A DNA stretch of 64,000 nucleotides. It comes from Dictyostelium discoideum (Eukaryota). Location of the stretch: assembly GCA_000004695.1 (NCBI GenBank), contig CM000150.2, positions 1-64,000 of the forward strand, written 5' to 3'. The notes under the pieces are model-generated. The model saw only the letters and a program-made list of their open reading frames with translations. It did no database searches and was not told the DNA's origin. How positions within the stretch are numbered: position 1 is the stretch's first letter; the number at the start of each line of letters is the position of its first letter. The position numbers and the translations under genes are program-made. Positions 10,036 to 50,486 of this stretch are shown here, in pieces.

Positions 10036-12445
10036 TCTGACTCTAGCCAACGGAGATTGGGATCAATCATTCCCCATTCTCCAAGAGGTCAAGTCAGAGA
10101 TTTCACATTGGTTAACAGTTCTAAACCAATGGAATGGAAAAGAAATCAGTCTGTTTCCAAGTTACGACTATGTTCTTACAACCGATGCCTCGGAATCAGG
10201 TGCAGGTGCCACTCTCAAGAAAGGAAACAAGGTAATCAAAACTTGGTCATTCCAGAGGTCAATAACTCAATCAAACATGTCGTCAAATCGTCGAGAAATG
10301 CTCGCGCTGTTAATGGCTTATCAAGCGCTATGTCGGAAACTGAACAACTGCAAGCTGAAGATTCAAACCGACAACACTACCACTCTCTCATACATCAATC
10401 GCCAGGGTGGTCAAATACAAGATCTCTCAGTTCTGTTCGAACAACTTTGGAAACAATGCCTCAAGAAGAAAGTGAACTTGATTGGAGAGCATATTCCAGG
10501 ATTCTTCAATGTAAAAGCCGACCACCTCAGCCGTCTTTCAGAGATGAATCACAAATCATCGACCAGAGTAATCAAGAGTTACAACTGGCAACTGAAGAAG
10601 GAAGTGTTCAATCGCATACAACTTCAATTCGGTCAAATACAGATGGATCTGTTCGCATCTCACCTCAACCATCAAACGAACAACTATTCAACAATCAGAA
10701 TGAATGCACTCCACCTCGATTGGAGTCAATGGAAGCAATGTCTAGCCTTCCCACCACCCATTCTTTTGCCTTCTATCCTGGAGAAGATGAACTCATACAG
10801 TTCGAAGAAGGTTTCTATAATACTGATCTTCCCAATCTGGAGATCAGCAACTTGGTATCCGATGATTCAAGCACAAGTTCCTCGTCATCATCGTCACATG
10901 TTTCCTCAAGTACTGGGAACATTTCAAGAAGTATTGATCAAACAATCAGTAGAGTCGATACCAATCCAGATTCAACAACGTTGGAAACTGGGGATTATTC
11001 AACTTTCCAATCTCATGTAATGTCCTTCGCTCGTACAACAAATACAAAAACAGCTGAGCTGTTAATGAAGTCTTGGGAACCTTCCACTCTCAAAGTATAT
11101 AGCTCCAGTTATACAAGATTCCTCAATTTCTGTACTTTGAACTCTTTGAATCCAGCAAACATTACCTTAGTTGTTTTCATGGATTATCTTACACATCTTG
11201 TTCAAACACAAACCTCCGTAAGCCTTCTCAACAATTAATGGTCATCGCTCTATGTTGAATCAGTTGTTACTCCTTAGGAATCAAACTGATATTGTTAATG
11301 CTCCATTCATTACAAGAATTATGACTGGTATTCACAAATTGCGCCCTTCATCTGCAAAGTATAAAGAGATATGGGATGCAAATCAAGTATTCAAGCACTT
11401 ATCTACTATCAAAGTTATCCCTAAGTACACATACACTGCGCTATTAAACAAGACACTTGTACTCTGTAAAATGTTTGGTTTAGCAAGATCATCAGACTTG
11501 GTGAAGTGGTCGTTCAAAGGTCTCATTATTTCTCTTGACTCAATCAAAGGTCCAGTTATTAATGCTAAAGAACAAAGAATTGGTGTTGTTTCAATCTTAG
11601 AATTAACTTCGTTAGATGATACTAACTCTCAAGTATGCCCTGTTCGCCACCTTGCAACATACCTTAGAGCTTCTAAAGGAAGAAGAAAGCCCCATTCGGG
11701 TGACTCTGTCTTTATTAAGAATGAGGGTGAACCGCTCCAAGTTAATGATATTAACTCAATTGTACTATCAACACTCTCAAAGTCAGGTATTGATATTGCC
11801 AAGTTCAAATCTCACTCTACCCGTTCCGCTATGGCTTCTCTGCTGTTGTCCAATAACGTTCCGTTCCACTTTGTCAAGAAGATGGGTCGTTGGAAATCAA
11901 ACGATACTGTAGATACCTTCTACGATAAAAGAATCATTGGTGAAAAATCTGGGTTTCTTAAATACTGTCGTCCAAATTTCATAATATATATATATATATA
12001 TGATAATATAAATTAAAAATTTAATTTATTAAATTATATTTTATATTAAATATATATATATATATTAGTCCCATCCCACCAGCCCTTAGTCGGAATTCCA
12101 TAAATCAAATTGTTTTTAGTTTTCAGTGCCACTATTTATACGTTTTTATTTTCTTAAAAATTTCGCAAAACTCAAAAAAATAAGAGTTTTCGACCCTTCA
12201 CAACTTTGTGCATAGTGTCGGTTCGGAATTTTTCAGTTTTTCGACCTTGCGCAATGATCGCGTCATTGTGCCGATTCGAAATTTTTACTTTTCTTTTGAA
12301 AATTTTTTATTCTTCGAATGTTCTAGAACATTCTAAAAAATTATCTTAAATATTTGGGAAATTCAAATAAATAAATGTTATTCATAATATATATATATAT
12401 ATTTAATATAAAATATAATTTAATAAATTAAATTTTTAATTTAAA
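10036..12445 (+). mobile_element. DIRS-1 copy D: 3' part (mid-RT to right ITR), frameshifted
   Basis: Starts abruptly at the RT position (SQCLTLANGDWDQ). There is a frameshift near 11200 (THLVQTQTSVSLLNN*). A complete right ITR lies at 12017-12445. Confidence 0.85.
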
Positions 12446-14207
12446 TCATTTTCATCAAAAGAGTAACTATATAATTTAAAACATATAGTTACCAATTGTT
12501 CCATAATTAAAAAATCATCATTTGATATTTGCTTTTTAATTGATATTAAAAGGTAATATAATATTGATCTACTCTCTCTTCCTTTCCTTGTTTTATTTGC
12601 AAATAGTGAAATTGATGGTTTTGGTTTGTTATCTATTATTTTTGCATTTTTTAAATTATTTAAAAAATTTGCAATTTTATTTTTATATTTATCAAAAATG
12701 TAATATAAACATCTTTGTGCGACACCTAATAAAATATTATGTAATATGTCTGGTTGTGTTTTTAAATAATTAATGGACAAAGGTTCGACCCACCCTCTGC
12801 CCACACCTTTGATACCAATATCTTTTGCTTTTTTTTCCCATATTTTTTTTAATTCTATATCAGCATTTAATTCAGCATAATTTGGTTTGGTGGAGTGAAA
12901 ATTTGTAATATCTTCTTGTTTTGTTAATGTACCTGAATGGCAAATAAATAAACCATCTCTTGGTTTGTCACATGTGTGACATGCATATTCATTTGAATTA
13001 TGTCCATTAAGTTTACACGATGCTCTAAATTCTGGAATATCCATTGTCAGTCCAAACGGTATAACATCTATTTGTTCATTTTCAATAATTAAATTAAAGC
13101 CATTACCAAAAAAGATGAAAACAATGCCCTAATTGTTTGATGAAAATTAAGTAACCAATCATTTGGTACTTCAAATAATAATAATTTATTATTTTTAAAT
13201 TCATTTCCAATATAATTTTCTATATCCAGCATTATAGTATAATCTTTCTTGTTTTGACACTGCATACTATCAGTGAATATTCTAAGTAAAACAATTTTAT
13301 TTTTATTTTTATTTTTTAAATCTTTAAATTGTTGACCACTTTTATAATTTGTATAAATTCCAGTTTCAAAATCTGTATCAAAATCTTTTCTTTCAAAAAA
13401 TTGCTTTGATTATTTGTAATAATTTTACTTTGTTCATTTTTACATTTTTTGGTGTTGAAATGTCCATTTCCATGATAAAATTGTTTATAAGAACGGTAAT
13501 ATGCAAGACAAAATGGACATATATTTTTATGCATAATATAATGAATAAAAATATTTTTAAAATTCTTTAATTTTTCTCTGCAATTAATGCATGATATGTT
13601 ATTTAAATTCATTTTGTTTGCTGGGTGGAAATTAAAAATAATTTTTTTTTTTTTTTTTTTCATTTTATTCAAATTTTAGCAATATAGCATTAAAATAACA
13701 TAATATAAAACCCAAGGCAACTGAAACACTTATTTATGATTAATTAATAAAAATAATAATAATAGAATTCAATTGCCACTGAAACAAATGAATAAAGAAT
13801 TAAAATTAATTTGGTTATCTTTTTAGTTTTTTTTTTTTTAATTTTCTTAATTTTTTTTTTTTTTTTTTTTAATAAATTTGAAATAAATAGTGTAATAATT
13901 GATTTGAAATGCATTTAAAATGTATTTTAAAAAATGTAATTAATAAAAGCTTAAAAAAGATTATTAAGTAATTTTAAATTACATTAAAAATAACTTTTTT
14001 AAATTTATTATAAATTGATTAAAACATTAGTTAAAACGCTTTATAATAAATTTAAAATGTCATTTTTAATTTAATTTTAAATGACCTTAAAAATATTTTT
14101 AAAATTACCTTTTTAAAAAGCATCACTAAAGCCAATTTAAAGCAAATTTAAATTGAATTTGCTTTAAATTGGCTTTAAAAATGCATTTTTCTTCGCTTTG
14201 TAACGTA
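12438..14207 (-). mobile_element. Element X copy (i): 5' portion in minus orientation, truncated by the DIRS ITR
   Basis: Minus ORFs 13316..13672 (zinc-finger-like N-terminus CINCREKLKNFKNIFIHYIMHKNICPFC) and 12436..13044 (MDIPEFRASC...CHTCDKPRDG...PDILHNILLG) are homologous to the 719-aa ORF at 39890. A TIR-like end caaagcgaagaaaaatgcatttttaaagcc lies at 14160-14207 on the - strand. Confidence 0.6.
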
Positions 14208-14589
14208 AAAATTAGCATTTTAATCTCTTTAAAAGCGAGGTCCGGATTTCGAAGCCGTTATTTAACGGATAAATATTTTAAATTTTTTTTTTGAATTTTT
14301 GTAAACTATATTAGGAATAAAAATGAAAATAAAAATAAAAAAAAAATATTCTAAAAGAATTACAAACCTTTTTAAATGGCAATGTTCTTTTTTTTTATTG
14401 GCAATGGTTTATATATATATATTTTTTTTTTTTAGATTTTCTAGATTTTCTAGATTTTACATATTATTCTTTATTGGACCTTTCTGTGAATAATTGAATT
14501 AATTATGAACAAAAAAAGTTATTTTTAAAAAGATAGAGTTACCCCGATCAATCTTTTCACGAATAATTTTTCATTTTTCATATTATTTT

Positions 14590-14900
14590 TTTTTTAAATT
14601 TTTTTCATTTATTCACAATTAAAATAAAAAATATAATAAATAAATAAATAAAATAAATAGTATGATTGACAAAAAAATCAAAAATACCGGGACTCAAATA
14701 AAGGATTTATTTTTTATATGTAGTTTTTTTTTTTTTAAGTTCTTTTTTTTTTCAAGTTCATTTTATTTTTATATTTTGTTTATTTCTCTATAAATACAAC
14801 CAAATTTAAATATACGATAGGTCTTAACAAATATTGTTTAATATTATTTAAAATTTTTGTTTTAAATAATGTGTTTTATTAAAAAAAAAAAAAAAAAAAA
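14590..14900 (+). repeat. Oligo(A)-terminated dispersed repeat (non-LTR retrotransposon 3'-end-like)
   Basis: ...cgataggtcttaacaaatattgtttaatattat.taaaatttttgttttaaataatg.gttttatt(A)21. A second copy lies at 35588-35775. Confidence 0.4.
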
Positions 14901-15213
14901 CATATGAAAAGTGAAAAATTTTTCAAAAAAAAATAAACTTTTCGAAATAACTGAATTTATTCCGGGATAACTCGATCTTTTTCAAAATAACTTTATATAG
15001 AATTAATTCAATTATCCACTGATAGGTCCATTTTAATAATGAATTAATTCTAATTTTTTTTTTTTTTTTATAATTATTATTCGTATTTCTATAATTAAAA
15101 ACATGAATTTTATTATTCTTATTATATAATTAATTTTTTAATGATTTCATATTTGATTTTTGTTATTAATACTGTTTAATTTTATACGACTTGAATGAAA
15201 AGTGTTTTGTGAA

Positions 15214-17011
15214 TTATAAATTTTTTTTTTTTATTTTAATTTTTTTCAATTTTTTAAAATATATTTTTTTTTTTTTTTGGCTAATAATTCCTTTCTTGAA
15301 AATTTTAACTTTTTTTGGTTTTTGAGGGGAGTCATGTTTTAGGGATCTTAGGATGATCTGTTTGTTATGTTGAATTTTGATTGGAGACAACATGGGTACA
15401 ATGACATTATCTGGATGGTTTGAAAGTGTTTGAGTGACAATTGCTGGTGTATTTGATGGTTTCTGAGTGGCAATTGCTGGTGGATTTGATGGTGCTTGAA
15501 TAACAATGGTTGGTGTATATGATGGTGCTCGAGTAACAATGAATGGTGGATTTGATGGTGCTATGGTAACAATGGTTGGTGAATTTGATGGTGTTTGAGA
15601 GACAATATCTGGTGGATTTAAAGTCTGAACAAAAGATGATGATGTTTTTGAAGTTGGTGGTTGTTGCAAAGCATTTGTCAAATGATGAATATTGGATATA
15701 TGTTCAATAGATGACACAAGTTGACGAGCAACATTCAAAGAAGGATTACAGGTAACAGATTTTTAAATAACATATTGGGGTATAGTAAGTAAACCTAATT
15801 CTTTCCTTAATTGGTTAATTAATGTTGGAGATGTCACATTACCATCCATCAATTTCAAACATTCATGTTTTAATTTTTCATTTTTAAAGGTATGGAAACA
15901 AGGATTTGCTTCATTAGGTAAATTATTATTCAATACATTAATTTTGGAAAAAAAGTCTAAAACTTTTAAAGGATCATCTTGAATCGCGATTGCATTAAAA
16001 TTGTAATTATTAAGATCATACCCAATTTTCTTTGTAAAAGAAAATAATATCTCAACAACTTTTCTATGGTTTGATAGGTGCAAATTTGATGTAAAAGAAG
16101 TTAAATCGTTTGAATCATTTGAATCGTTTGAATCATTTAAATCATTGTACTGTGGTTTAAAATCATGGATTCTTTCCTTTGCTTGATTATAATGAACTAA
16201 TTTATTTGGTCCAATACATATCGGTTTTTTGTTTGTTATTACACAGCGAAGAAAAAACCACCTTTAAATTCGCTTTAAATTAAATTTAAATTTGCTTTAA
16301 AGTCCTGAATTAAAGCAATTTTAAAGGTAATTTTAAGGTAATTTTTAAGGTTACTTTAAAATCACCTTAAAAATTACCTTTAAAATTACCTTTAAAATTA
16401 CCTTTTTAATGGCTTTAAAAGCGAGGTCCTGAGTTCGAAGCCGTTATTTAACGGATAAATTTTTTAAAATTTTTTTTTTAATTTTTCAAAAATTACCAAA
16501 AGGGATTCGATCCCCCGACCCTCTATCAAAGGGTAGTCTCATCAACCATTACACCATTTGATTGCTTTGATGAAAAATTTAAAAATGATAGAATATTTTA
16601 TCCCCATTTTTTTTTTCTAAAATTAGATCTTTTTTATTAAAAACCTTAAATTTATGTTTAAAGGAAATTTAAATTCACTTTAAATCTACTTTAAATATAC
16701 TTTAAATCCTATTTAAAATTAATTTAAAATAAATTTTAAAGGTATTTTTAAATATCTTAAAAATTATCTTAAAAATTACCTTAAAAATTACCTTTAAAAT
16801 CACCTTTAAAATCACCTTTAAAATTGCTTAAAAATTTATTTTAAAGCAAATTTTAAAGGCATTTTTAAATATCTTAAAAATTACCTTAAAAATTACCTTA
16901 AAAATGAATTTTTTAAACGCGGCTTTAAATTCAATTTAAATCCAATTTAAATCAACTTTTCTTTAAATTTGCTTTAAAGGTGCATTTTTCTTTGCTGTGT
17001 AATAACATCCT
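15214..17011 (-). pseudogene. Host-like ORF (about 340 codons) with Pro/Thr-rich 12-aa repeats, split by a MITE 3 codons after its putative ATG and carrying one in-frame TAA
   Basis: ORFs 15763..16083 and 15214..15738 share one frame and are separated by a single TAA. The frame stays open upstream to atgttatta at 17003-17011 (- strand), which is split by the MITE at 16242-16999. C-terminal repeats APSNPPxIVT occur five times. Confidence 0.4.
16242..16999. mobile_element. MITE (758 bp), complete, TIR CACAGCGAAGAAAAAACCACCTTTAAA.../...CTTTAAAGGTGCATTTTTCTTTGCTGTG, flanked by TA
   Basis: TIRs read directly. Flanks are gttatTA|...|TAataaca. The core holds a tRNA-like segment and a GAGTTCGAAGCC box. 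Confidence 0.8.
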
Positions 17012-17927
17012 CTAGAAATTGTATCCTATAGGTTTTTTATTGTTTTGATCATCATTATGTATTTCAATAATCTTGTTCTTTACCAATGTTTTCTTTTTAT
17101 TTAATGTTTCTAATAAAAACCTGTATCACCAATTTTAAATTGTTTTTTTGTTGATTTTGATGACCAATTGTTATTATATTTTTCAATATTTTTAAGAATA
17201 ATTTCTTGTCTTTGTTTATATGATATATCTGGTATACTAACTAACATTTTTCTCCTATATTTACATGAAATCCATTATCTAATGTAGCTGTTTGAAATAA
17301 TAATAATAACTGCATTTGCATTATTTGACCCTTCAATTATTATTGTTAAAATTTCGATTTTACAAAATTATAATTTAAATGTTAGAGTAAGTTTTTTTTT
17401 TAAAAAAAAAAAAAATAATAATAATTAATATAAATAACAAAAAAAAAAAAAAAAAAAGAAATAATAAAAAGTTATCTAATTTTCATTTTTTATTTTTTTT
17501 TATAATTTCAAAAAAAAAAAAAAAGAGATGGGAAACAATTTATAAAAAATCTTTTTTATAAATTTTAAGAGTACTCTTCCTTATGAAAAAGTAGTCCAAT
17601 ACCACGCCAAAAACCTAGCAGCTGCTCAAAGGCTACAAACCGCCCAGCAAGTCAACCTCCATACCACCAAAAGACTATTTGAAGATACTGACGATCTCAC
17701 TCAATCCCTCAAGCAAACATTAACAAAGAAGCGTAAGGAGCTAGACCAAGCACTCAACCACACCCAAAAAGAACTACAGGAGCCAAGAAAATCACATGAT
17801 AGTACGCAGAAAATGGCACAAAAGATCACTTAGAGCTGTACTCTTAATGAAGAACTCGCCAAAGAGCTCCTTAACTAAACCAAGCACAATAAAGATACCA
17901 TCGAAAGGATTATACCCGCTAGGCTAG

Positions 17928-18299
17928 ATGCCCCAGCAACGCCTCAAAGAGGTTACTCAACAAATAAAACACGCACAAGCAAAACAGATCGACGTAACAA
18001 AGGGAATTCAAGAACGATCCCAGCAAATAAAACAGCTTCAAGCCCAAATTGATGGAATAAACAAGCAATACCAGCCTTCTAGTCAAACTAGGCCGCTAGA
18101 AGAAGTGGAGCGTGAGCAGCAAGCACTTGAAGCGAAACTACAGCAACTCCTCAACGATTTTAGGAAAAAAAAAACACAGCTTGAGCAAGCCCAGAACCTA
18201 GCTCAAAAGGCCCAAGCAGATTTAGGGCAAGAAATAGCGCAAGAAAAAGCCAAACAAGATCAATTGGAGGCGACACAAAGAGCTAAAGGAACGCATTGA
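17928..18299 (+). pseudogene. Coiled-coil-like ORF fragment (Q/E/K/L-rich heptads) in island I1
   Basis: ...QIKQLQAQIDGINKQYQ...EREQQALEAKLQQLLNDFRKKKTQLEQAQNLAQKAQADLGQEIAQEKAKQDQLEATQRAKG. Surrounding frames are broken. Confidence 0.3.
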
Positions 18300-18751
18300 A
18301 GAAGGTAAAGTACTCAATGAGCAGGAACAAGAAGCTTGATTGATCAACAGCGCACCCCCAGCTGTTCATAGATCTCAAAGCGCCCGAAGTACCGCATTGA
18401 CTGAAAAAAAGAAAAGCTCTCTTGTATCGAAGAAAAGACGATCCGAGGCAGCTAGCCCATATGCGGCAACAGCAGCACCTTAACCTCAAAGAGAGGATGA
18501 TCGTGCTTCAAAATGCACAAACCATGCGTGAGCAAGCAGCTAGAAGAAAGGTAGAGTTTACTAACTCTAACGCTTCTTGCTGTAAAACAAGAAGTACACC
18601 AATCGCAGCAAACATGAGAGCAAGAAAACAAACGCATCATCGAAGAGAATGTTCAGGGTATAGCAGCGCTCACCAAAGAGCCCCACCAGGATAAAGAAAG
18701 GGAGAGCAGAAGAGACCAAGAAGATGTAAAAAATACAAAGAGAAAACAGGA

Positions 18752-19077
18752 GTGGGAAAACAGGGCATGGTATGTAAATTATGGGATTGGGTCAAAAAAA
18801 ATCCCATTACCGCAACTATTGTAGGGATTCTGGCTGTGGATGCATTGGTGTGTCTGGTTTCTTATGTGGTCCTACCATTATTAAAAAGCAGCATCGCGTC
18901 AACAGGAGCTGGTGGCTTTTTTGGTGGTTGTTTTCAACAAAACCCGGCTTATCTGTCTTTGGCTCATTTGCTGGTGGATGGTTAAACAATAATCTACAAC
19001 GGATTAATAATTGGGGCAATGGAAAAGGCTGGAAAACAAATGATGAGCTAAAAGCACCTTCCAAAAAAGAATTTTAG
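18752..19077 (+). pseudogene. Frameshifted ORF pair encoding two hydrophobic lobes (ITATIVGILAVDALVCLVSYVVLPLL and GLSVFGSFAGGWL)
   Basis: ORFs 18752..18985 and 18781..19077 overlap in two frames. The bilobed hydrophobic arrangement resembles membrane-insertion motifs of intracellular-bacterial proteins (speculative). Confidence 0.25.
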
Positions 19078-20254
19078 CATCTAAAAACCAACTTGGATAG
19101 GAACTCCAAGGGATACAACGTGATCTGCAAGAGGCGAAAAGAAAGTACATAGAGGAACGTGAAAAGGAAGCAGAAAAACCTGAGCAGGAGCAGGAAGAAG
19201 TTTCAGGGTAATAGTTAAACATCCTCGCTCAGCAATTCAATGCTTCTTCTGTGCAGCATGAGCCAATGTAAAACGTGACTAATCTGACCAAGCAGACACA
19301 GGAATTGCTAAAACAATGGGATACAAATAGGATGACCCTTCTCTATTCATGCAAAGCAGTGTTTTGCTAGATCAGATGGATCAGCAGATAGCGCAAGTGG
19401 AGGAAGCTAAAGAAGAGGTGTGCTACTTAAGAAGCAACCTGTCTTATCTGGTGAATTTAAAGGGAATTTACCAACTCAGAAAAGCGGCCCCGCAATCTTA
19501 ACTCGATACACTCATACAAGCCAAAGAGCAGCTATATCAAAGATCATTCGAGATACGCAACAAGAAGCCATGGTATTTGAGCAAGACTTTGAAAAAATAA
19601 CAAAGAAGCTCCATGATTTCTTATCCAGTCATGAGTACGTCCAAGAAGAATTTAAACCAACTACAACTGAGCAGCATGAACCTATCCTCACTAGACCTAC
19701 CATCGACTTGACAAACTCCCTCTCCCTAAGGCTTTAGAAGAATCAATTATGCTGCTTGCCGAAAAGATGAGCTATAATGGTTTAAAATTGGATTTTAAAC
19801 AAGCCAAGCAAGCACTAGAGAAAGATCATACTAATGTAGATTTAAAAGCCTTTAATAGGACTAAAATGGAGTTTAGCAATCATCCTCTACATCAAAAAAC
19901 CATTGAAATTGGTATGCAGAGGCAGGTTGTAAAGCTATCACCGGTTGCATTGGATTTATAGCGCAGGGTGTTAAAGTGGTAAAGGGGGCGAAGACGGAAT
20001 TTAAAACTTTGGCTGAACTAGGATTAAAAGATGGAATAAAAATTTCATATAACAGAGCTTTAGAATTAGGCGAATAATTTTTAGGAAATGATATAAAGAA
20101 TTAGTTCTTGGTAGCGGCAGATATATCTCTGTAGATGGTAAAAGAGCTTTTAAAAAGGGAACTAATGATATTATAGGCACTCGCATCAACTTAGAAACAT
20201 TAACTCTAAATCCTATAAAGAAGGGGAAAATGATGGTTGATCATAATTATTATT

Positions 20255-20261
20255 TTAAATT

Positions 20262-20299
<38 letters not shown>

Positions 20300-20551
20300 G
20301 AATAACATTTATTTATTTGAATTTCCCAAATATTTAAGATAATTTTTTAGAATGTTTCTAGAACATTCGAAGAATAAAAAATTTTCGAAAGAAAAGTAAA
20401 AATTTCGAACCGGCACAATGACGCGATCATTGCGCAAGGTCGAAAAACATAAAAAATCCGAACCGACACAATGCAGGAAAATTGTGAAGGGTCGAAAACA
20501 CTTATTTTTTTGAGTTTTGCGAAATTTTTAAGAAAATAAAAAAGTATTCAG
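20255..20551 (+). repeat. Partial DIRS-1 left ITR (variant subfamily aaaaacataaaaaatccg), inner end truncated
   Basis: Matches the ITR from its outer terminus to ...gcgaaatttttaagaaaataaaaa, then switches to element X sequence. Confidence 0.75.
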
Positions 20552-21644
20552 AACAAAAAAATCGGCATTACAGATTATGACAGATCTTGGGTAGAAAAGT
20601 TAAAAATAAATTATTTGTACTTACAACCTGATATTTTACATAACATATTATTGGGTATTGTACAATGGGTTTTAAATTATGTTTTCAAAAAATATAAGGA
20701 TCAATTTACAATTTTTATAGAAAAATTAAAAGAAGCTAAAATTGGGGTGCACCAAAATTTACATCAGCAGAGAGATTTGAAGCACAATTTAGTAAAATTA
20801 AATACCTTTTGACAAACAATACAAACAACCAAGATCAACATAAATTTGTAAGAGTTTCAAAAATATTAATGGCAACATTTTTAGATAATTTTAACAATCT
20901 AAAAGAAAAAGATGATGACAATGATGATTTAATTTTAGGGCAAATAATTAAAAAAAATGAAAATATTTATTTAAAAAATAATATTTTATCAGACATTAAC
21001 TTTCATTACAAAAACATAGAAAATATTCAATTTTATAAATCAATTAAAAATTTAAAAGAAATATATAATGTTGGTGATGGAATTGAAGTTGCCTCAGAAA
21101 ATTCATTAACTGGAAGATGTAGTGCAATAATTATCGCTATTTGTTTAATAGAATTAAAAAATAATAAAAGTGCACATTCAATTTATATACAATACTTTGA
21201 TAAAGATACAGGTGATCAAAATAATAAGCATTTCAAGTATAGTATTTGATAACATAGTAAACACATTAATACCAATACAAATCGATTCGTCCAACTATCT
21301 TATAATTTATAAGTGCCATGACCAATTTTCAATAAGTAAAAAAAAAAATGAAAAAATTTCGTCGAACTTATTTACAAAACTTTTACATTTTTACTTAACT
21401 TTTTGTTTTTTTTTTTATTCCAATTTTCTTTTTTTTTCGGTTGGGAATTATAGGATTTTAAAAAAAAATTTATAAAATATATAAAAAAAATGACTCTCAA
21501 TAATTCTGCATCTTTTGAAACACCAAATAGAAGTGGTAATTATGTAAATAGATCATATATAACTTCACAAACATCACCAATAACACCAATACCATCTCTT
21601 ATTTTAAATCAAACTGATAACTCCATAGATCCACAACGTACTGT

Positions 21645-22423
21645 CACAGCGAAGAAAAAACCATCTTTAAAGCATATTAAAATTTAATTTAAAGCGAATT
21701 TAAAGTCCTGAATTAAAGCAATTTTTAAAGTAATTTTAAAGGTAATTTTTAAGTTTACTTTAAAATCACCTTAAAAATTACCTTTAAAATTACCTTAAAA
21801 ATTAACTTTTTAATCGCTTTAAAAGCGAGGTCCAGAGTTCGAAGCCGTTATTTAACGGATAAATTTTTAAAATTTTTTTTGAATATTTTGAAAAATTACC
21901 AAAAGGGATTCGATCCCCCGACCCTTTATTAAAGGGTAATCTCATCAACCATTAAACTATTTGATTGCTTTGATGAAAATTTAAATATGATAGAATATTT
22001 TATCCCCATTTTTTTGATCTAAAATTAGATGTTTTTTTATTAAAAACCTAAAATTTATATTTAAAGGAAATTTAAATTCACTTTAAATCTACTTTAAATC
22101 TACTTTAAATTCTATTTAAAATTAATTTAAATTCTATTTATAATTAATTTAAAATAAATTTTAAAGGCATTTTTAAATATCTTAAAAATTATCTTAAAAA
22201 TTACCTTTAAAATCACCTTTAAAATTACCTTAAAAATCACCTTAAAAATTGCTTAAAAATTTAATTTAAAGCAAATTTTAAAGGCATTTTTAAATATCTT
22301 AAAAATTACCTTAAAAATTACCTTAAAAATGAGTTTTTTAAACGCGGCTTTAAATTCAACTTAAATCCAATTTAAATCAACTTTGCTTTAAATTTGCTTT
22401 AAAGGTGGATTTTTCTTCGCTGT
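21645..22423. mobile_element. MITE (779 bp), complete, inserted in an element X exon, flanked by GT
   Basis: cgtactGT[CACAGCGAAG...CTTCGCTGTG]GTaagaagac, against the uninterrupted cgtactgttagaagac at 42340. Confidence 0.85.
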
Positions 22424-22545
22424 GGTAAGAAGACAACAAAGACCTCAAAGACCAAATGCAATTCATCCACCAACAACAAATATTATAGAAAAAATATTGG
22501 TGTATGAAACATTGCACAGAAATTGTGTTTCTCAATACTATGCAA

Positions 22546-23291
22546 CTGGTAAGGTCACAGCAAAGAAAAATGCACCTTTAAAGCAAATTTAAAGCAAAGT
22601 TGATTTAAATTGGATTTAAATTGAATTTAAAGCCGCGTTTAAAAAATTCATATTTAAGGTAATTTTTAAGGTAATTTTTAAGATATTTAAAAATGCCTTT
22701 AAAATTTGCTTAAAAATTGCTTAAAAATTTATTTTAAAGGTGATTTTAAAGGTAATTTTAAAGGTAATTTTAAAGGTGGTTTTTAAGGTGATTTTTAAGA
22801 TGATTTTTAAGATATTTAAATAGGATTTAAAGTAGATTTAAAGTAGATTTAAAGTGAATTTAAATTTCCTTTAAATATAAATTTAAGGTTTTTAATAAAA
22901 AAGATCTAATTTTAGATAAAAAAAAATGGGGATAAAATATTCTATCATTTTTAAAATTTCATCAAAGCAATCAAATGGTGTAATGGTTGATGAGACTACC
23001 CTTTGATAGAGGGTCGGGGGATCGAATCCCTTTTGGTAATTTTTGAAAAATTAAAAAAAAATTAAAAAAAATTTTTCCTTTAAATAACGGCTTCGAACTC
23101 AGGACCTCGCTTTTAAAGCGATTAAAAAGGTAATTTTAAAGGTAATTTTAAAGGTAATTTTTAAGGTGATTTTAAAGTAACCTTAAAAATTACCTTTAAA
23201 ATTACCTTAAAAATTGCTTTAATTCAGGACTTTAAATTCGCTTTAAATTAAATTTAAATTTGCTTTAAAGGTGGTTTTTTCTTGGCTGTGG
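22546..23291. mobile_element. MITE (746 bp), complete, opposite orientation to 21645-22423, flanked by GT
   Basis: ggtaagGT[CACAGCAAAG...CTTGGCTGTG]GTaagataa, against the uninterrupted ggtaaggtaagataa at 42470. Confidence 0.85.
22966..23040 (+). other. tRNA-like segment inside the MITE core (not a clean cloverleaf)
   Basis: A perfect 5-bp stem ACCCT/AGGGT encloses the 7-nt loop TTGATAG (GAT in anticodon position, 23005-23007). It is followed by GGGGGATCGAATCCC (T-arm or B-box-like), an acceptor-like 7-mer and a T-run. D-arm and acceptor pairing cannot be completed. Confidence 0.3.
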
Positions 23292-26865: not shown

Positions 26866-27830
26866 TATGGCTTCACTTTAGCATCTGAGGGAGAAACGTA
26901 ATATTTTTTTATAATATGAAAAGCGTTGGGGCCTTCACAAATAGCAGGTCGATTATACTCTAATTTGCATTGAATGTGGTGCCCAAAACCTACTGGTATG
27001 GGATCGCTCGGTTATCCTTCATGATGTTTTCTGTTCTGGGGTTAATAAGCTGCCTAGCATCCTGATAGGGGGTAGGAATTGACGCTACCTGTTGCGGAGT
27101 TTGGAGGTCAATTTGGACCCGCATCAAATTCAAACATAACTTCGATAGCGATAGATTTAGTTGGTATAGATACACATAAGGTTATGCCAATGTCTGAAGG
27201 AAGTAGGTCGAAAAGTACTCAAAATAGGGTGCTTCCCATAAGCGGTGCAGATAGAGCGCCAATGGTTATTTCCCCATTTTTGTTGATGGTCAATTTGGAT
27301 ATCTTGAAACGGTATCTTCTTCTAGCCATCTAGTACAGGAACGGTGAGTCGATCTATTTGTTGAAAACTTAAAATATAGCAGCGGTTGTTGAAAGTTTGC
27401 TTATGATAATTACGATGTAGGTCCAATATANCTTTATCATAGGCGAGGAGCCAAGTAAAATATTCGATACAAGGCAGATAATGTAGGTCGATGAGAAAGA
27501 TCTTATTGTCCCAATACATGGGGAATTAGTAATTATTGCTTGGCATGTAAATCAACTGAAGTCTCGTCCTAGCTTGGGTTTACAGCCTGTCTATCAATAA
27601 AGCCTTCGAGTCTTGTCAAGGGGTAATGATCAGACAACAAGTCAAATCCTATACTCTATAAGCAGGCTTAGTCTAAGCAAGTAATAAATGAGTTCTTCCC
27701 ATGGACTTATTCGGAACAATGGGTTAATTTTTGTAGTTGTTTATTGAATATAATAAAGGGGATGCCGATCAATAAAGTAACCCAGCTAATAAGTTTAAAC
27801 ACTTCTAGATCTCCTAGGCTAATCGCTTTT
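26866..27830. other. Higher-G+C island I2 of unknown origin (contains one ambiguous base, n at 27431)
   Basis: Composition differs from the flanks. Only short ORFs without recognisable motifs. Bounded by DIRS ITR ends on both sides. Confidence 0.4.
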
Positions 27831-27851
27831 ATATTATCATATATATATATT

Positions 27852-27889
27852 CACAGCAAAGAAAAATCCACCTTTAAAGCAAATTTTAA
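27852..27889. mobile_element. Solo MITE or element X terminus (CACAGCAAAGAAAAATCCACCTTTAAAGCAAATTTTA) inside a DIRS ITR end
   Basis: The 38-bp TIR sequence is flanked on both sides by the ITR end motif attatcatatatatatat. Confidence 0.5.
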
Positions 27890-37600: not shown

Positions 37601-39884
37601 TTTTTTTTGTTTTTTTTTTTTGCGGAAATTTATGATATATTTTTGTTCTTTTTCATTTCCATTAACAATAATATGTTTAAGTTTGATATTATTAATTATT
37701 AATTCAGTCCCAAATAATTCATTATAATCATCATTAAATAAGTTGCTAAATGATTATATTGATTTGGTTTTAAGTTTCTAACAATTATTTGATTGATAAA
37801 ATCTGTGACTGATTTATTTTCTTTTACATGCAACTGATTATCTTCTTTCCTTTGTATATTGGATGACATATCTGGATTAGAAACAAATTTGGAATTGATT
37901 AGACACTTTCGGAGAACATTCGAGACAATTCTGACCATGATTTGAGCTTGACCATTACCATGATGGTGGTAAGGCAGACATGTATTGTGAGTAATATTGT
38001 TGACTTGAATACATTTCTTCCAAGGTGTTGATGTGAACAAAGTATCATTATACTCAACTTGATCAACAGTACAGGCATCCAACCCGGATATAAAGTCCAT
38101 ATTGATTTCCATAAAGCATCAGACAGGTAAATGAGATGGCAAGTATAATCCCATGTTCATCTGTGGCGCATAAACAAACATTGCAACTCTTGCAGTAAAA
38201 TAAGATATATTCCATCATTCCATACCAATAAAAATTTCTCTTGACTAATTCAGAAGTTTTACGATTACTCCAGTGTCCAGCAATAGCAGAATCATGATAA
38301 CTTGAAATGACTAACTGTATGACATCTTCAATCTTGATCCATTCGATACCATTCTGATATGTGATACTTAAACTTTTATACTGGTCGTTGATGGTTTCAG
38401 ATTTAATAAGTTTAGCTTCCAATTCATAACCTTTTAAAATTTCCTTAACGATCTTCATTTCATCAAGAATGATACCTGTATTAAAATAATTTTTATCACA
38501 AAAAGAATTTTTAAGAGAGTTAGTAATTTGAGAGAAGTCCATTTTACTTCGATCGAAGTTATGTGATAAATATTATTATTATAATGTGATCTGAAAGACC
38601 ATCAGCGGCTGAATTGGTGACGCCTTTGATGTATTCAAGTGTGACTTTTCAGGCATCAATCTTCTGCATCCATCTGTTGATTCTTTGATTTAACCCAAGG
38701 ACCCTTTGGTTTCTTAGGAATTAAATATTATTATGATGATTACCTTGAACCCAAAGATATTGAAGTGATGCATTTCTAATGATTTCACGAATAGGCTTCC
38801 TTTTCTAACACATTCAAGGTAGAATGGATACTTGGTATTTGGAAGGTTGAGACTTACCGCATTGGCTACAGCTGATTTAACTTGATCAAAAGCCAATTGC
38901 ACCTCAGTATCCCATGTGAAAGCAGAATTCTTCTTAGTGAGACGATAGAGTGGATCAGCTATAATGGCTAAATTTCGGATGAAATCCTTGCAATAATTAA
39001 CGGTTCCCATAAATTATCTAACGGTAGTCTTATCAATTGGTTCTGGCCACTCGACGATTTGACACGGATGAAGAGTTGTACTACATTACATTGAGGTTAT
39101 GATACTTGAGCTTATTGAATACCTGTGATAAATCTTGTTTATGTTGATCATAATAAAAAGATTTTGTTAGTACTAAAATATCATCGATATAGACCACGAC
39201 GAGTCCTCAATCGATTTCATCGGCCAATATTTGTTACATAAATCTTTGAAAAGTATACGGTGCATTCTTGGCACCGAATGGCATTCCCCTCCACTGGAAT
39301 GTACCAAAAGGTGTATGGAATGCTGTCTTTGACCGATCTCTAGGTTCTACTTGGATCTGGTGGAAACCATCGGCTAAATCGATCCTGGACATTAACTTTG
39401 CACCTTTGGTCTTCTGGATGAGTACCGTTGTATTTGGAAGTGGATAACTATCATAAATAGTAAAGTCATTTAATGAACGGTTATCGATGCACATTCACCA
39501 CTTACCATTTTTCTTCTTTGCGAATATCACTGGTGCACCGAATTCTGATTTGTTTCTTTCAATCCATAACTTCTTTAACCTTTCAGTAAGTTGATCTTTC
39601 AATTCTTGTTATATTGACAATAGTACTGGATAACATCTTGATTTTGGAACTTGTGCACCATATTTTAACTTCACTTCAAAATTGAAACCTTTCCGAGATG
39701 GCGGAACTTGGTCTAATGAATCGAAGACTTCCTTGTAGTTTCCCTTCAGATGTTTGATGATGAATTGATCTTGAACTTCTTTCCATTCTTGGTGTTTTAC
39801 TTCCACTACCTTGTATTTCTCTTGATTTGGCTGATGATTAACTTTGTGAACTTGGTACGTTGGTTGATGATTGAAGACCTCTTG
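37600..39884 (-). mobile_element. Ty3/gypsy LTR-retrotransposon pol fragment (Skipper-like), degenerate, RT through integrase
   Basis: Minus ORFs give the RT block YPLPNTTVLIQKTKGAKLMSRIDLADGFHQIQV...MPFGAKNAPYTFQRFM (39234..39494), the integrase zinc region H..H...C..C (38063..38542) and the integrase core ...HHGNGQAQ... (37699..38112). Multiple stops and frameshifts. Confidence 0.7.
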
Positions 39885-39889
39885 ATCAT

Positions 39890-42049
39890 ATGAGCCAACA
39901 AAATTTAAATGAAAATTTTATAATTGATGAGAATAATAATAATTTAGAAAATGAAAATGAAAATGAAAATGAAAATAATTCATTTGAGGATATAGGAAAT
40001 ATATTAAACCAAAATGGACAAGAAAATGATGATATTGAAATTTTAAAAGAAAAAGAAAATGGAAATTTAGGAAAAGAATTAAATAATTATGAAATTGGAT
40101 TTTTAAAGTTGGGTTTAGAAAATGCTAAATCGTTAAAATTTATGCAACAAATTTTGGATTTTTTTAAAAACAATATAAATGCAATTAATGAAATTAGATA
40201 TACAACAAAGTATATGGATTCTATATTTTTAGCAAATTTACCTATCGATGGTCACTTTTTGAGTTACAAATATTATGAAGAGTCAATTTTTTATTATGAA
40301 ATTTGTTCAGTTGTAAAATTATTAATTGAAAAAAAAATTTTTTTAGAATATTTAGATTTCTCAAAAGACTATGAGCAAGGTATTTATAAAAATTATAAAT
40401 CTGGAGAACAATTCAAAAAAGTAAAAAATTCAATTTCAGATAAATTTATTTTATTAAGAATATTTAGTGACGGAATGAGTCATCAAGGTAGATCAGATTA
40501 TACTATAATGGTGGATTTTGAAAATTATAATGGTCCATTTTTTAAAAATAACAAAATTGTTTTATTTAGTGTTCCAAAAGAAAGGTTTCACAATATACAT
40601 CAAACAATTAAAAAATTATTTTCAGCGCAATTTAATAATAAATTAATAATTAAAGATAATAATGGAAATGATTATGAAATTATACCATATGGATTAACAA
40701 TGGATATACCAGAATTTAGATCATCTTGTAGGATTAACCATTATAATTGCAATGAGTTCTCATGTCATACATGTGATAAAGCAAGAGGTGTCGATTATTT
40801 ATTAAAAGAAGGAAATTATAGAAATCAAAAAGACATTATTGACTTTCACAATTCAAAACCAAATAAACAAGATTTTTTGAATCCTCAAAATAAAATTTTA
40901 AAATTAGAAACAGAACAAAAAATGAAAAAAATCGGCATTACAGATTATGACAGATCTTGGGTAGAAAATTTAAAAATAAATTATTTGTACTTACATACTG
41001 ATATTTTACACAAAATATTATTGGGTATTGTACAATGGGTTTTAAATTATATTTTCAAAAAATATAAGGATCAAATTACAATTTTTATAAAAAAATTAAA
41101 AGAAGCTAAAATCATTCCAGATCATTTACCACCATCAGAATCTTTATTTGGTGTAAAAACAAGAAAAGGTAGAGAGAATAGAAGCATATTATATTTTATT
41201 TTATTTTTTACTAAATCAAATGTATCAAATGATGATTCCTTATTATTAGAAGAAATGGTTCAGATTACTTTTTTATTATATCAAGATTCTTTCGACGAAG
41301 ATGATTTGGATAAAATAAATTATTTAGTTAAAAATTTTAATAAAAAAATATTTATGATAATACCAAATGAACCAATCAACTTTCACCTTTTATTACATTA
41401 TCCTTTATATATAAAAAATTGGGGTGCACCAAAATTTACATCAGCAGAGAGATTTGAAGCACAATTTAGTAAAATTAAAGACCTTTTGACAAACAATACA
41501 AACAACCAAGATCAACATAAATTTGAAAGAGTAACAAAAATATTAATGGCAACATTTTTAGATAATTTTAACAATCTAAAAGAAAAAGATGATGACAATA
41601 ATGATTTAATTTTAGGGCAAATAATTAAAAAAAATGAAAATATTTATTTAAAAAATAATATTTTATCAGACATTAACTTGCATTACAAAAACATTGAAAA
41701 TATTCAATTTCATAAATCAATTAAAAATTTAAAAGAAATATATAATGTTGGTGATGGAATTGAAGTTGCCTCAGAAAATTCATTAACTGGACGATGGAGT
41801 GCAATAATTATTGCTATTTGTTTAATAGAATTAAAAAATAAAAAAAGTGCACATTCTATTTATATACAATACTTTGATAAAGATATAGGTGATCAAAATA
41901 ATAAGTACCACTTTTTAAGAAAAAGCTTTTCAAGTATAGTATTTGATAACATAGTAAACACATTAATACCAATACAAATCGATTCGTCTAACTATCTTAT
42001 AATTTATAAGTGCCATGACCAATTTTCAATAAGTAAAAAAAAAAAATGA
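39890..42049 (+). CDS. Element X transposase-like ORF (719 aa here, N-terminally truncated), CACTA/En-Spm (Tnp2-like) family motif
   Basis: HLLLHYPLYIKNWGAPKFTSAERFEAQFSKIKDL fits the conserved H..l.HL...i..wGP......f..ERf...lK box of Tnp2/TnpD-type transposases. In copy (iv) the same ORF is continuous with an upstream zinc-finger-like exon (63601 onward). Confidence 0.55.
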   Translation: MSQQNLNENFIIDENNNNLENENENENENNSFEDIGNILNQNGQENDDIEILKEKENGNLGKELNNYEIGFLKLGLENAKSLKFMQQILDFFKNNINAINEIRYTTKYMDSIFLANLPIDGHFLSYKYYEESIFYYEICSVVKLLIEKKIFLEYLDFSKDYEQGIYKNYKSGEQFKKVKNSISDKFILLRIFSDGMSHQGRSDYTIMVDFENYNGPFFKNNKIVLFSVPKERFHNIHQTIKKLFSAQFNNKLIIKDNNGNDYEIIPYGLTMDIPEFRSSCRINHYNCNEFSCHTCDKARGVDYLLKEGNYRNQKDIIDFHNSKPNKQDFLNPQNKILKLETEQKMKKIGITDYDRSWVENLKINYLYLHTDILHKILLGIVQWVLNYIFKKYKDQITIFIKKLKEAKIIPDHLPPSESLFGVKTRKGRENRSILYFILFFTKSNVSNDDSLLLEEMVQITFLLYQDSFDEDDLDKINYLVKNFNKKIFMIIPNEPINFHLLLHYPLYIKNWGAPKFTSAERFEAQFSKIKDLLTNNTNNQDQHKFERVTKILMATFLDNFNNLKEKDDDNNDLILGQIIKKNENIYLKNNILSDINLHYKNIENIQFHKSIKNLKEIYNVGDGIEVASENSLTGRWSAIIIAICLIELKNKKSAHSIYIQYFDKDIGDQNNKYHFLRKSFSSIVFDNIVNTLIPIQIDSSNYLIIYKCHDQFSISKKKK

Positions 42050-44127: not shown

Positions 44128-44770
44128 CACAGCAAAGAAAAATGCACCTTTAAAGCAAATTTAAAGCAAAGTTGATTTAAATTTGATTTAAATTGAATTT
44201 AAAGCCGCATTTAAAAAATTCATTTTTAAGGTAATTTTTAAGGTTATTTTTAAGATATTTAAAAATGCTTTTAAAATTTGCTTTAAAATAAATTTTTAAG
44301 CAATTTTAAAGGTGATTTTAAAGGTGATTTTAAAGGTGATTTTTAAGGTAATTTTTAAGATAATTTTTAAGATATTTAAAAATACCTTTAAAATTTATTT
44401 TAAATTAATTTTAAATTGAATTTAAGTAGATTTAAAGTAGATTTATAGTGAATTTAAATTTCCTTTAAATATAAATTTAAGGTTTTTAATAAAAAAGATC
44501 TAATTTTAGATCAAAATGGGGATAAAATATTCTATCAATTTTAAATTTTCATCAAAGCAATCAAATGGTGAAATGGTTGATGAGACTACCCTTTGATAAA
44601 GGGTCGGGGGGTNGAATCCCTTTTGGTAATTTTTGAAAAATTTAAAAAAAAAATTAAATAATTTTATCCGTTAAATAACGGCTTCGAACTCAGGACCTCG
44701 CTTTTAAAGCGATTAAAAAGGTTATTTTAAAGGTAATTTTTAAGGTGATTTTAAAGTAAACTTTTAAATT
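44128..44770. mobile_element. MITE, truncated (one arm plus core)
   Basis: CACAGCAAAGAAAAATGCACCTTTAAAGC... through the tRNA-like core (n at 44613), ending near ...gattaaaaaggttatttt. Confidence 0.7.
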
Positions 44771-44789
44771 TTTCAAGTAGCTTTAAACT

Positions 44790-45649
44790 TATTGAGTTTT
44801 CAATTCCCAACATTAAACACCGTCCAATAGCTCGTTAGTGGATATAATTCTTTCGTGGAACGTTTTAATGTGCGGGTGTTTCCGCGCCAATGACGGCTAG
44901 CTGGTGGTCGCTTTTTGTAATAACGAACAAGATTGAACAGAGATATCATCATTTGCGATCAACTTAAATAAATAGTCGACAGTCTGGGGAGTAGTGGGCA
45001 TTTCTGGATCGATAAGGTAAGCGTGACGATCATTTTAAATGGTTTCGCCTAAGCCCTTAACTTTACGTGCAACCATCTCAGTAAATTGCTCTGTGGTTAT
45101 TACACCCGCTGTGAGGTCTTGTTTACAGTTAGCGTACCATTGATCTAATTTTTGATTTGGTGTTTGTTTCATGATTGATACTCACTAATGGCTGATAGTA
45201 TTTAATGGGATGCGTGTTTCTTCAGACGACGCTGTAATACCGAATAGCCTTTGTTGAACCGTTCAGCATATAAATTTGACAAGCCGTTATACTGTATGAT
45301 GCGCCGCCATCCATCCGATGCTTACTGCTCAAATGAGGCTGCTGAACGACACAGTACCTTGAATGCCGGCATTAGATTCGATCACCTCATTGCTGGTTTC
45401 AAATGACACTGGCGCACGTCCGACGACCAGACCATCTTTAAGATTGTCGTAAGCTGTTGCGTACTGTAGCAAAGCACGTTTGAAATATAAATTGATTACC
45501 ACAACTAGAACGTTAGGGTTACGTATAGTATACTCAATTAACCAGCGAGTTTTCCCAGTTTGACGTGAGCCACTGAAGCCAATTGTAAACAACTCTCGTA
45601 AATGACATGCCTTAGTACCGCCAAGATTATTAGCAGCGCTACGCATTAT
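44790..45649 (-). other. Higher-G+C island I3: phage-like DNA with a terminase-large-subunit-type ATPase fragment
   Basis: Minus ORF 45329..45646 contains GFSGSRQTGKTRWL. The SRQTGKT box closely matches the T4 gp17 Walker A box SRQLGKT. Downstream frames are broken. Confidence 0.45.
45329..45646 (-). pseudogene. T4-type large terminase N-terminal ATPase fragment (Walker A SRQTGKT)
   Basis: See island I3. Only about 105 codons are open. Confidence 0.4.
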
Positions 45650-46104
45650 TTAAAAATTTAATTTATTAAATTATATTTTATATTAAATATATATATATAT
45701 ATTATGAATAACATTTATTTATTTGAATTTCCCAAATATTTAAGATAATTTTTTAGAATGTTCTAGAACATTCGAAGAATAAAAAAAAATTTTCGAAAGA
45801 AAAGTAAAAATTTCGAACCGGCACAATGACGCGATCATTGTGTAAGGTCGAAAAACTGAAAAATTCCGAACCGACACTATGCACAAAGTTGTGAAGGGTC
45901 GAAAACTCTTATTTTTTTGAGTTTTGCGAAATTTTTAAGAAAATAAAAACGTATAAATAGTGGCACAAAAAACTAAAACAATTTGATTTATGGAATTCCG
46001 ACTAAGGGCGGGTGGGATGGGACTAATATATATATATATATTTAATATAAAATATAATTTAATAAATTAAATTTTTAATTTATATTATCATATATATATA
46101 TATA

Positions 46105-50026: not shown

Positions 50027-50486
50027 ATTTTATTGTTGATATCTAAAATTATAATATGAGAAAAATAATAATATTAAAAATTAATAAAGAGAAATAATTA
50101 TTTGTATAAAATTTGTGTGTGTGTGTATCTTAAATATATATAGGAGGAATTCCCAAATAAAATAAATCAAATTGTTTTAGTTTTTTGTGCCACTATTTAT
50201 ACGTTTTTATTTTCTTAAAAATTTCGCAAAACTCAAAAAAATAAGAGTTTTCGACCCTTCACAACTTTGTGCATAGTGTCGGTTCGGAATTTTTCAGTTT
50301 TTCGACCTTACACAATGATCGCGTCATTGTGCCGGTTCGAAATTTTTACTTTTCTTTCGAAAATTTTTTTTTATTCTTCGAATGTTCTAGAACATTCTAA
50401 AAAATTATCTTAAATATTTGGGAAATTCAAATAAATAAATGTTATTCATAATATATATATATATATGATAATATAAATAATCGCAA

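Follow-up and report, generated by a model that had tools for sequence, protein, structure and literature searches.

Wolbachia-derived nuclear insertions of endosymbiont DNA, the 'nuwts', were reportedly described in insects and nematodes by Dunning Hotopp et al. in 2007, and for the social amoeba Dictyostelium discoideum, the 2005 genome paper of Eichinger et al. is said to list horizontally acquired bacterial genes. The inclusion (Inc) proteins of Chlamydiae possess a bilobed hydrophobic domain, in which two ~20-amino acid transmembrane helices are separated by a short loop, carry a type III secretion signal at the N-terminus, and reside in the inclusion membrane. Here, we describe an island of decayed genes at positions 17572-20250 of a 64-kb stretch of D. 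discoideum DNA (positions 1 to 64,000 of contig CM000150.2, assembly GCA_000004695.1; the entire stretch is hereafter referred to as the window). The window belongs to the DIRS-1 array of the chromosome 1 centromere of strain AX4. On balance, we lean toward the view that the island is the pseudogenized relic of a laterally acquired cluster of at least three genes, probably donated by an endosymbiont of the Amoebophilus lineage, which has decayed neutrally.

The island consists of unique sequence, and comparison by blastn and tblastx detected no similarity to the rest of the 64-kb window. Its overall G+C was 0.41 (A 38% and T 21% on the plus strand), and G+C per 100 nt was 0.38-0.48 across 17601-20000 versus 0.05-0.25 in both flanks. 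A first-pass annotation, made by a model from the letters of the DNA, had noted a 2.7-kb higher-G+C island of non-Dictyostelium composition with an A/T tract on its left and a partial DIRS inverted terminal repeat (ITR) on its right, and these points were borne out. The island contrasts with flanks of ~0.2 G+C, the left flank is an A/T tract, and the right-hand ITR fragment (20251-20547, minus strand) showed 92-95% identity in blastn analysis to ~10 other DIRS-1 ITR copies in the window. The outer terminus of this fragment adjoins the island and cuts its 3' end, and a DDT-type element with a partial copy of its open reading frame (ORF) lies directly beyond (20555-21644, plus strand). DIRS-1 and DDT-type repeats, which are genuine host DNA, are present on both sides. 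It is thus established that the island is embedded in host DNA, is of non-host composition, and was truncated by DIRS-1. No transposase, reverse transcriptase, or integrase signals and no terminal repeats were found for the island by Pfam scan and self-comparison of the window, and searches with Rfam and ARAGORN detected no credible structured RNA. Known Dictyostelium transposons (DIRS-1, DDT, Skipper, and others) were considered and rejected as identities of the island, with no similarity in the window by blastn or tblastx and no enzyme domains.

On the plus strand, open stretches 68-123 codons long alternate among the three reading frames. At each position, the longest open frame spanned 84 codons on average, compared with 51 ± 8 in first-order Markov shuffles, and the summed length of the eight longest open runs was reached by 0/1000 shuffles. 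Stitching of the open stretches gave a plus-strand reading path of 904 amino acids with 12 frame changes and 11 stops (17831, 17876, 18337, 18615, 19075, 19098, 19209, 19212, 19269, 19499, and 20075), in agreement with the coiled-coil and hydrophobic fragments, broken by frameshifts and stops, that had been annotated on this strand. At least the stop at 18337 is read as a true gene end and not as a lesion, and that at 19075 probably is one as well. Since the tiling of open frames exceeds that of the shuffles and 17572-18339 is homologous to an intact protein (P0117, see below), the island is derived from coding sequence. The cluster has a prokaryote-like layout, with intronless genes closely spaced on one strand. 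The island is non-functional now.

Ex-gene 1 (17572-18339, plus strand) was identified by HMMER and tblastn as the 3' part (~40%) of a P0117-like gene. It contains a 123-amino acid ORF (17928-18299, plus strand), an accidental open fragment, which by exact look-up is DDB_G0267196 (XP_647759.1, Q55H67_DICDI) of D. discoideum AX4 chromosome 1. The long Q/E/K/L coiled coil originally noted at this position was confirmed by a Q content of 24% and a heptad contrast of 0.52, compared with 0.27 ± 0.05 in shuffles. With this ORF as the query, HMMER was run exhaustively against 1.84 billion representative proteins, and only two relatives, P0116 and P0117, were obtained. P0116 is DDB_G0294272, encoded on an unplaced 8.9-kb AX4 contig, and its cluster mate P0118 (137 aa) led to three Logan contigs (L012-L014), which represent a sister copy 98.5% identical to window positions 17572-19371. 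P0117 (EukProt 'gene97-130_t') is an intact protein of 794 aa with 58% identity over 121 residues (E=1.2e-21). In tblastn analysis, residues 353-436, 516-621, and 627-747 of P0117 were collinear on window 17582-18296. The likeness to P0117 thus comprises three collinear blocks with 58% identity in the coiled-coil C-terminus and is confined to 17572-18339; P0117 is intact, whereas the island copy is truncated, internally deleted, and disabled. Compared with P0117, ex-gene 1 is 5'-truncated, without the first ~352 residues, and also lacks ~140 internal residues. Its reading frame is disrupted by stops at 17831 and 17876, by a frameshift near 17930-17935, and by a 2-nt deletion at 18274, the last of which occurs in the window copy but not in the sister copy. 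In the latter, the frame continues past 18274 to the stop at 18337-18339, which is therefore the real end of ex-gene 1.

P0117 begins with a signal or lipobox-like sequence (…LLISHSLMSC…), and its N-terminal ~280 residues, to which no fold was assigned, are followed by ~500 residues of long helices. Of the long Q-rich coiled coil of P0117, ex-gene 1 keeps only the C-terminal part. No relatives of P0117 were detected in Pfam or PDB sequences, and in a word-indexed protein database, only P0117 itself was found among the matches listed. A single-sequence AlphaFold model of P0117 had a mean pLDDT (predicted local distance difference test score) of 49, with the N-domain unmodelled. No paper was found by literature full-text search for DDB_G0267196. 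Although their current annotation is that of hypothetical proteins, DDB_G0267196 and DDB_G0294272 are pseudogene fragments, and flagging them as such is warranted.

Ex-gene 2 (~18401-19077, plus strand) was recognized from its translations as a charged, coiled-coil-like N-terminal part followed by a C-terminal membrane segment. The N-terminal part (18401-18776) changes frame near 18575 and 18776 and has a stop at 18615, and the stop at 19075 is the probable true end of the gene. The final 103 codons of ex-gene 2 are uninterrupted in the sister copy (L012), where they constitute a single ORF. In the window copy, the hydrophobic region at 18776-19077 is divided over two frames owing to a 1-nt deletion in a T-run at 18917, as seen by comparison with the sister copy. 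Lobe 1 (ITATIVGILAVDALVCLVSYVVLPLL; 18806-18883, plus strand) is a strong predicted transmembrane helix, which in the restored frame reads ITATIVGILAV[G/D]ALVCLVSYVVLPLL with a 19-residue Kyte-Doolittle mean of up to 2.77. Lobe 2 (18908-18984, plus strand; AGGFFWWLFSTKPGLSVFGSFAGGWL in the restored frame) has a high content of G, F, and W, is broken by the 18917 deletion, and is weakly hydrophobic (Kyte-Doolittle maximum of 0.94; usual cut-off, 1.6). The loop between the lobes consists of eight residues in the restored reading. Two hydrophobic lobes split over two frames had been proposed for this region; the split is real and lobe 1 is strong, but lobe 2 is weak. Ex-gene 3 (19071-20250, plus strand), which is possibly more than one gene, encodes an alpha-helical, charged sequence of at least ~390 codons, and its 3' end is cut by the DIRS-1 ITR. 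Five frame changes and stops at 19098, 19209, 19212, 19269, 19499, and 20075 were observed; the stop at 19269 arose by a C-to-T change private to the window copy, and the corresponding codon in the sister copy is CAA. These results indicate that at least three collinear ex-genes are present, with the 18337 stop common to the sister copy, so that the one or two former genes of the earlier annotation were an undercount.

No homologue of ex-genes 2 and 3 was found in Pfam, NCBIfam, PHROGs, PDB, protein, plasmid, phage, IMG/VR, GTDB, and JGI metagenome collections. The stitched readings yielded only sub-threshold noise (Sec62, SMC/Rad50 coiled coils, and DUF3927) against Pfam, NCBIfam, PHROGs, and PDB sequences. 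Nothing was obtained when the transmembrane plus C-terminal 531 aa were compared with 5.8 billion proteins in a word-indexed search, when plasmids, phages, and Escherichia coli genomes were searched with the island readings by tblastn and blastn, or when IMG/VR, GTDB genomes, and JGI metagenomes were pattern-scanned with the island reading and P0117.

The lesions were compared between the window and its sister copy. The 2-nt deletion at 18274, the 1-nt deletion at 18917, and the stop at 19269 are private to the window, a stop at 19148 is private to L012, and most other lesions are common to both copies. The shared lesions indicate that the cluster was already disabled before the duplication, and the private lesions indicate that both copies are still decaying. 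At the sites that differ between the copies, the window has A/T at 12 and G/C at 5, an excess expected from the AT-biased mutation of the host. The island has therefore lost its coding integrity and is undergoing neutral decay in place.

The left junction falls within a perfect 12-nt palindrome (17567-17578, AAGAGT|ACTCTT). Upstream of ~17572, the window and the sister copy diverge completely, and the left flanks are unalignable, with a local alignment score of 15 compared with 14.5 ± 2.4 for shuffles. In the sister copy, the left junction (L013:60-100 and L014:70-112) reads …AGAAGAGGGTACT|TACTCTTCC…, and its flank is AT-rich and host-like. Such a common terminus next to different flanks suggests that a unit with a fixed end moved or was duplicated. 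An AT-rich repeat of ~760 bp with internal 12-13-nt tandem units was also observed at 16242-16999, 21645-22424, 22556-23290, 44128-44790, and 51639-51985. It brackets, in direct orientation, the island and a phage-like fragment farther downstream (islands C and D, see below), and possibly represents a terminal portion of the DDT-type element that carries a 719-aa ORF at 39890-42049. Given the shared left end, the palindrome, and the bracketing repeat, there is room for mobilization of the island as a unit. Left of the island, in unique and otherwise AT-rich DNA, lies a 174-aa ORF (15214-15738, minus strand) with proline-rich repeats of the PSN(P/T)P type and a strong local GC skew of 0.36.

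Three more unique islands of higher G+C, designated B, C, and D, were found in the window. Island B (26880-27880, minus strand) contains the C-terminus of a PTR2/MFS transporter (~27700-27830), followed by a WbqC pseudogene (~26915-27520, with one N base). The WbqC sequence is frameshifted and matched Pfam PF08889 with an E value of 7e-9, above the curated cut-off. The location of PTR2 upstream of WbqC corresponds to the gene order of bacterial contigs L002-L009. When the WbqC reading was stitched, 106 homologues were obtained, and the top clusters were from Candidatus Amoebophilus sp. (57% identity) and A. asiaticus 5a2 (Aasi_0464/0458, 55% identity). In a neighbor-joining tree, this WbqC was sister to EukProt 'gene2957-3690_t' (P0014), and the Amoebophilus clade was the sister group of that pair. 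On either side, island B adjoins the outer terminus of a DIRS-1 ITR. Island B is a fragment of a bacterial chromosome of the Amoebophilus lineage. The WbqC neighbors in Amoebophilus-like genomes are PTR2, ClpB, GidB, and MutS2, none of which matches the 17572-20250 island.

Islands C (44791-45650, minus strand) and D (50481-51638, minus strand) matched phrog_2586 (E=4.8e-7) and phrog_1491 (E=2.6e-19), respectively. Island D shared 45% identity with a small gene labelled 'tail fiber' in large phages, including those of Erwinia and Salmonella, and island C matched a gene 1.4-1.9 kb downstream of it in the same phages. In tblastn analysis, C and D showed 41-47% identity to adjacent genes of Erwinia Agricanvirus, Salmonella phage SA002, and Serratia jumbo phages. 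C and D are collinear with the phage sequence but are separated by a complete DIRS-1 (45650-50480), which is direct evidence that DIRS-1 inserted into foreign DNA. A non-coding part of island D (51040-51260, minus strand) aligns to jumbo-phage intergenic DNA and contains GGTTCGA (T-arm-like) and AGCTnnGTCGGTTAnAGCA (D-arm-like) motifs. No transfer RNA (tRNA) was called by ARAGORN at this position or in the matching phage DNA. Pseudogenes of tRNAs have been reported in centromere 1 (PMC2665215), and this segment may correspond to them. Elsewhere in the window, a degraded long terminal repeat retrotransposon pol with reverse transcriptase and integrase-like ORFs was observed at 37700-39800 (minus strand). 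It adjoins the intact 719-aa DDT-type ORF (39890-42049, plus strand), for which there were no Pfam matches and of which partial copies lie at 12436-13044 (minus strand) and 20555-21644 (plus strand).

Since homology to taxonomically placed sequence was found for no part of the 17572-20250 island, its donor was judged by composition. The dinucleotide relative-abundance distance of the island was 123 to Amoebophilus-like contigs, compared with 213 to jumbo phage, 213 to DIRS-1, and 195 to host AT-rich and transposable element DNA. Random 2.7-kb fragments of phage, DIRS-1, and host or transposable element DNA were at distances of 205-251 from the Amoebophilus-like pool, and true members were at 53 ± 13. 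The distance of island B to this pool was 102 (true 1-kb members, 76 ± 25), and those of islands C and D to the phage pool were 61-75, a match to the signature of enterobacterial jumbo phages. In synonymous codon usage, the island fitted the Amoebophilus-like contig L009 (40.6% G+C) best, and C and D fitted phage best. The gap from L009 per codon was 0.19 for phage (95% confidence interval [CI], 0.15-0.24) and 0.06 for DIRS-1 (CI, 0.03-0.09), and a host ORF and DIRS-1 fitted the island worse than Amoebophilus-like genes did. The first-pass annotation had proposed a comparison with the other islands for a shared origin; dinucleotide signature and codon usage group the present island with Amoebophilus-like material and not with the phage-like C and D, DIRS-1, or host DNA. 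In addition, P0117 ('gene97-130_t'), the sole full-length relative of the island, and P0014 ('gene2957-3690_t'), the closest relative of island B, have the same unusual EukProt header style. Amoebophilus infects wild D. discoideum and is visible inside spores (PMC8518690). From the dinucleotide signature, codon usage, island B, header style, and ecology together, we infer that a donor of the Amoebophilus lineage (Bacteroidota, Amoebophilaceae) is most likely and is the best single hypothesis.

Several observations weigh against this assignment and against a simple insertion. In the searches made, no part of the island was matched by a protein of a sequenced Amoebophilus or of any other bacterium, and Amoebophilus-like loci and GTDB genomes likewise gave no match. 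P0117 comes from a collection of eukaryote proteins and may be genuinely eukaryotic. The island distance of 123 is well outside the same-genome range of 53 ± 13, and the codon-usage signal is largely a match in G+C at third codon positions. Because jumbo-phage-like DNA is located in the same array, proximity to an Amoebophilus-like fragment is weak evidence of a shared donor. Finally, the two copies have the same left end and unrelated flanks, for which a simple single insertion falls short.

An artefact, namely, a contaminant read, a chimeric assembly, or low-quality sequence, might be suspected from the dense frameshifts and from the manual reconstruction of the chromosome 1 centromere from shotgun reads (PMC2665215). 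However, a contig of a second, independent assembly (GCA_054883475.1), which covers window 11491-19808, has the same left flank and 0 differences within 17572-19808, so the frameshifts are not read errors. Differences between this contig and the window were located in a DIRS-1 stretch (11583-11667), in homopolymer runs (13827-14337), and at 16335. The contig (JBTAPE010000010.1) stops within the island, at window position 19808, where there is no repeat boundary, and departs from the window upstream at the DIRS-1 junction at 11583-11667. Moreover, the sister copy, with most of its lesions in common with the window, was recovered on three independent contigs derived from the Sequence Read Archive, Dictyostelium repeats are reached at both junctions of the island, and E. 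coli genomes, plasmids, and phages yielded no island match by blastn and tblastn. The low-quality or contaminant read suspected in the first-pass annotation is thereby excluded, and the artefact reading as a whole is already effectively refuted, with next to no probability left to it. The annotation had also taken a match to a known D. discoideum locus as a point against foreign origin. Such a match formally exists in DDB_G0267196, but since it only places the window in the reference genome, it is no argument against foreign ancestry.

Among the alternative origins, descent from a bacteriophage or another virus, in one version from the gene of a tape-measure-like or injected virion protein, is unlikely. 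Orphan genes abound in phage genomes, and the combination of a coiled coil with a hydrophobic part is also seen in tape-measure proteins. The island likewise encodes a coiled coil, then a hydrophobic glycine-rich segment, then more helix, and the phage-like islands C and D, 25-34 kb downstream, show that phage DNA did enter the array. Against this, the 904-aa stitched reading and P0117 remained unmatched in PHROGs, in 50,697 phage genomes (tblastn and blastn), and in IMG/VR pattern scans, and the island is separated from phage by codon usage and by a dinucleotide distance of 213 compared with 61-75 for C and D. A match to a tape-measure hidden Markov model or a tail-module location was not found either, with nothing at E<0.3 in PHROGs and Pfam and no tblastn match in phage genomes. 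A eukaryotic origin, in which the island was carried by or belonged to a low-copy mobile element of Dictyostelium, or came from another protist, and was duplicated by transposition, is similarly improbable. Two copies with an identical left terminus, unrelated flanks, and a palindrome at the junction would fit it, as would the filing of P0117, the sole full-length relative, in a eukaryote protein set, and DIRS-1 shows that Dictyostelium elements can reach ~39% G+C. However, the enzyme signals and terminal repeats of a mobile element are absent, codon usage fits DIRS-1 and the host ORF less well than Amoebophilus-like genes, and the start of P0117 is a bacterial-type signal or lipobox-like sequence. 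Because the WbqC with the same EukProt header style nests among Amoebophilus-lineage sequences in the WbqC tree, symbiont contamination of that EukProt data set is suggested. Less probable still are membrane-inserted effector genes of another amoeba-associated intracellular bacterium, such as Inc-like genes of Chlamydiae or genes of Legionella or Coxiella relatives. A G+C of 40-45% fits several such lineages, a coiled coil with a hydrophobic hairpin-like segment is present, and Chlamydiae infect ~27% of wild D. discoideum isolates (PMC8518690). However, neither Inc nor other effector families were matched in Pfam and NCBIfam, chlamydial and gammaproteobacterial homologues were absent from the protein search results, lobe 2 is unconvincing as a transmembrane helix, and Bacteroidota provide the only taxonomically placeable bacterial DNA in the window. 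The resemblance to chlamydial inclusion proteins that had first been proposed was therefore not upheld, with no Inc match in Pfam, NCBIfam, or PDB, no chlamydial homologue, and a weak lobe 2.

We thus return to a laterally acquired cluster, probably from an Amoebophilus-lineage endosymbiont, as the explanation we favor. Of the symbiont- or phage-derived pseudogenes suggested in the first-pass annotation, decayed foreign genes, probably of a symbiont, stand, and the chlamydial Inc idea, for which there is no homologue, does not. In this explanation, DNA of an intracellular bacterium would have reached the nucleus after lysis of the symbiont and would have been joined by end-joining into centromeric heterochromatin, where insertions are tolerated. 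The genes, being without eukaryotic expression signals, then decayed, as the lesions attest. Insertion of DIRS-1 and DDT-type elements into and next to the foreign DNA cut it short, as observed at the right end of the island and at islands B, C, and D. The segment containing the island was duplicated, as the sister copy demonstrates, and both copies go on gaining AT-biased substitutions and homopolymer indels, which were detected in their comparison. The predicted product of ex-gene 1 would be P0117-like, starting with a signal or lipobox-like sequence and continuing through an N-domain into a long Q-rich coiled coil; that of ex-gene 2 would be a protein of ~200 aa with a charged helical N-terminal part and a C-terminal membrane anchor or hairpin; and that of ex-gene 3 would be alpha-helical and at least ~390 aa in length. 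From these predicted features, the original proteins possibly had envelope or host-interaction roles.

A wider and more doubtful interpretation is that centromere 1 is a graveyard that has repeatedly captured DNA of hosted or eaten organisms, and that the cluster is a fossil host-interaction operon, encoding a secreted coiled-coil protein and a membrane-hairpin protein, of an extinct or unsampled Dictyostelium endosymbiont, which after entry into the genome was duplicated or even mobilized as a unit whose terminus is palindromic. It draws on the presence, within one window, of the PTR2-WbqC fragment, the jumbo-phage-like fragment with tRNA-like remnants, and the orphan gene cluster. The published analysis of centromere 1 reported 86.5% repeats and did not mention foreign-derived sequence (PMC2665215). 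If the donor assignment is true, the AX4 centromere holds a genomic fossil of an Amoebophilus-type endosymbiosis together with phage DNA, which would date and document the association of the NC4/AX4 lineage with symbionts, provide an example among protists of DNA transfer from symbiont to nucleus, and mean that DIRS-1 centromeric heterochromatin tolerates and preserves foreign DNA. The main value lies in what the set of islands tells about the traffic of symbiont and phage DNA into a protist centromere, more than in the pseudogenes themselves.

Compared with chlamydial Inc proteins, the island shares a coiled coil and a putatively two-lobed hydrophobic segment, but there is no homology or chlamydial relative, lobe 2 is weak, and the segment is the C-terminus of a separate small ex-gene. 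The island is similar to nuwts in that prokaryote-type fragments are located in a host chromosome, are mostly pseudogenized, lie in a repeat-rich setting, and have a donor lineage that is intracellular in the host. The island differs from nuwts in that its donor is deduced from composition and a neighboring fragment and not from direct homology, and in that its host is a social amoeba and its site a DIRS-1 centromere. As AX4 is an axenic laboratory strain, the transfer would be historical. With the genes listed by Eichinger et al., the island shares the presence of bacterial-type sequence in the D. discoideum nuclear genome. Those genes are intact, functional-looking, and host-like in composition, whereas the island is disabled, located in heterochromatin, and recent enough to retain its foreign G+C.

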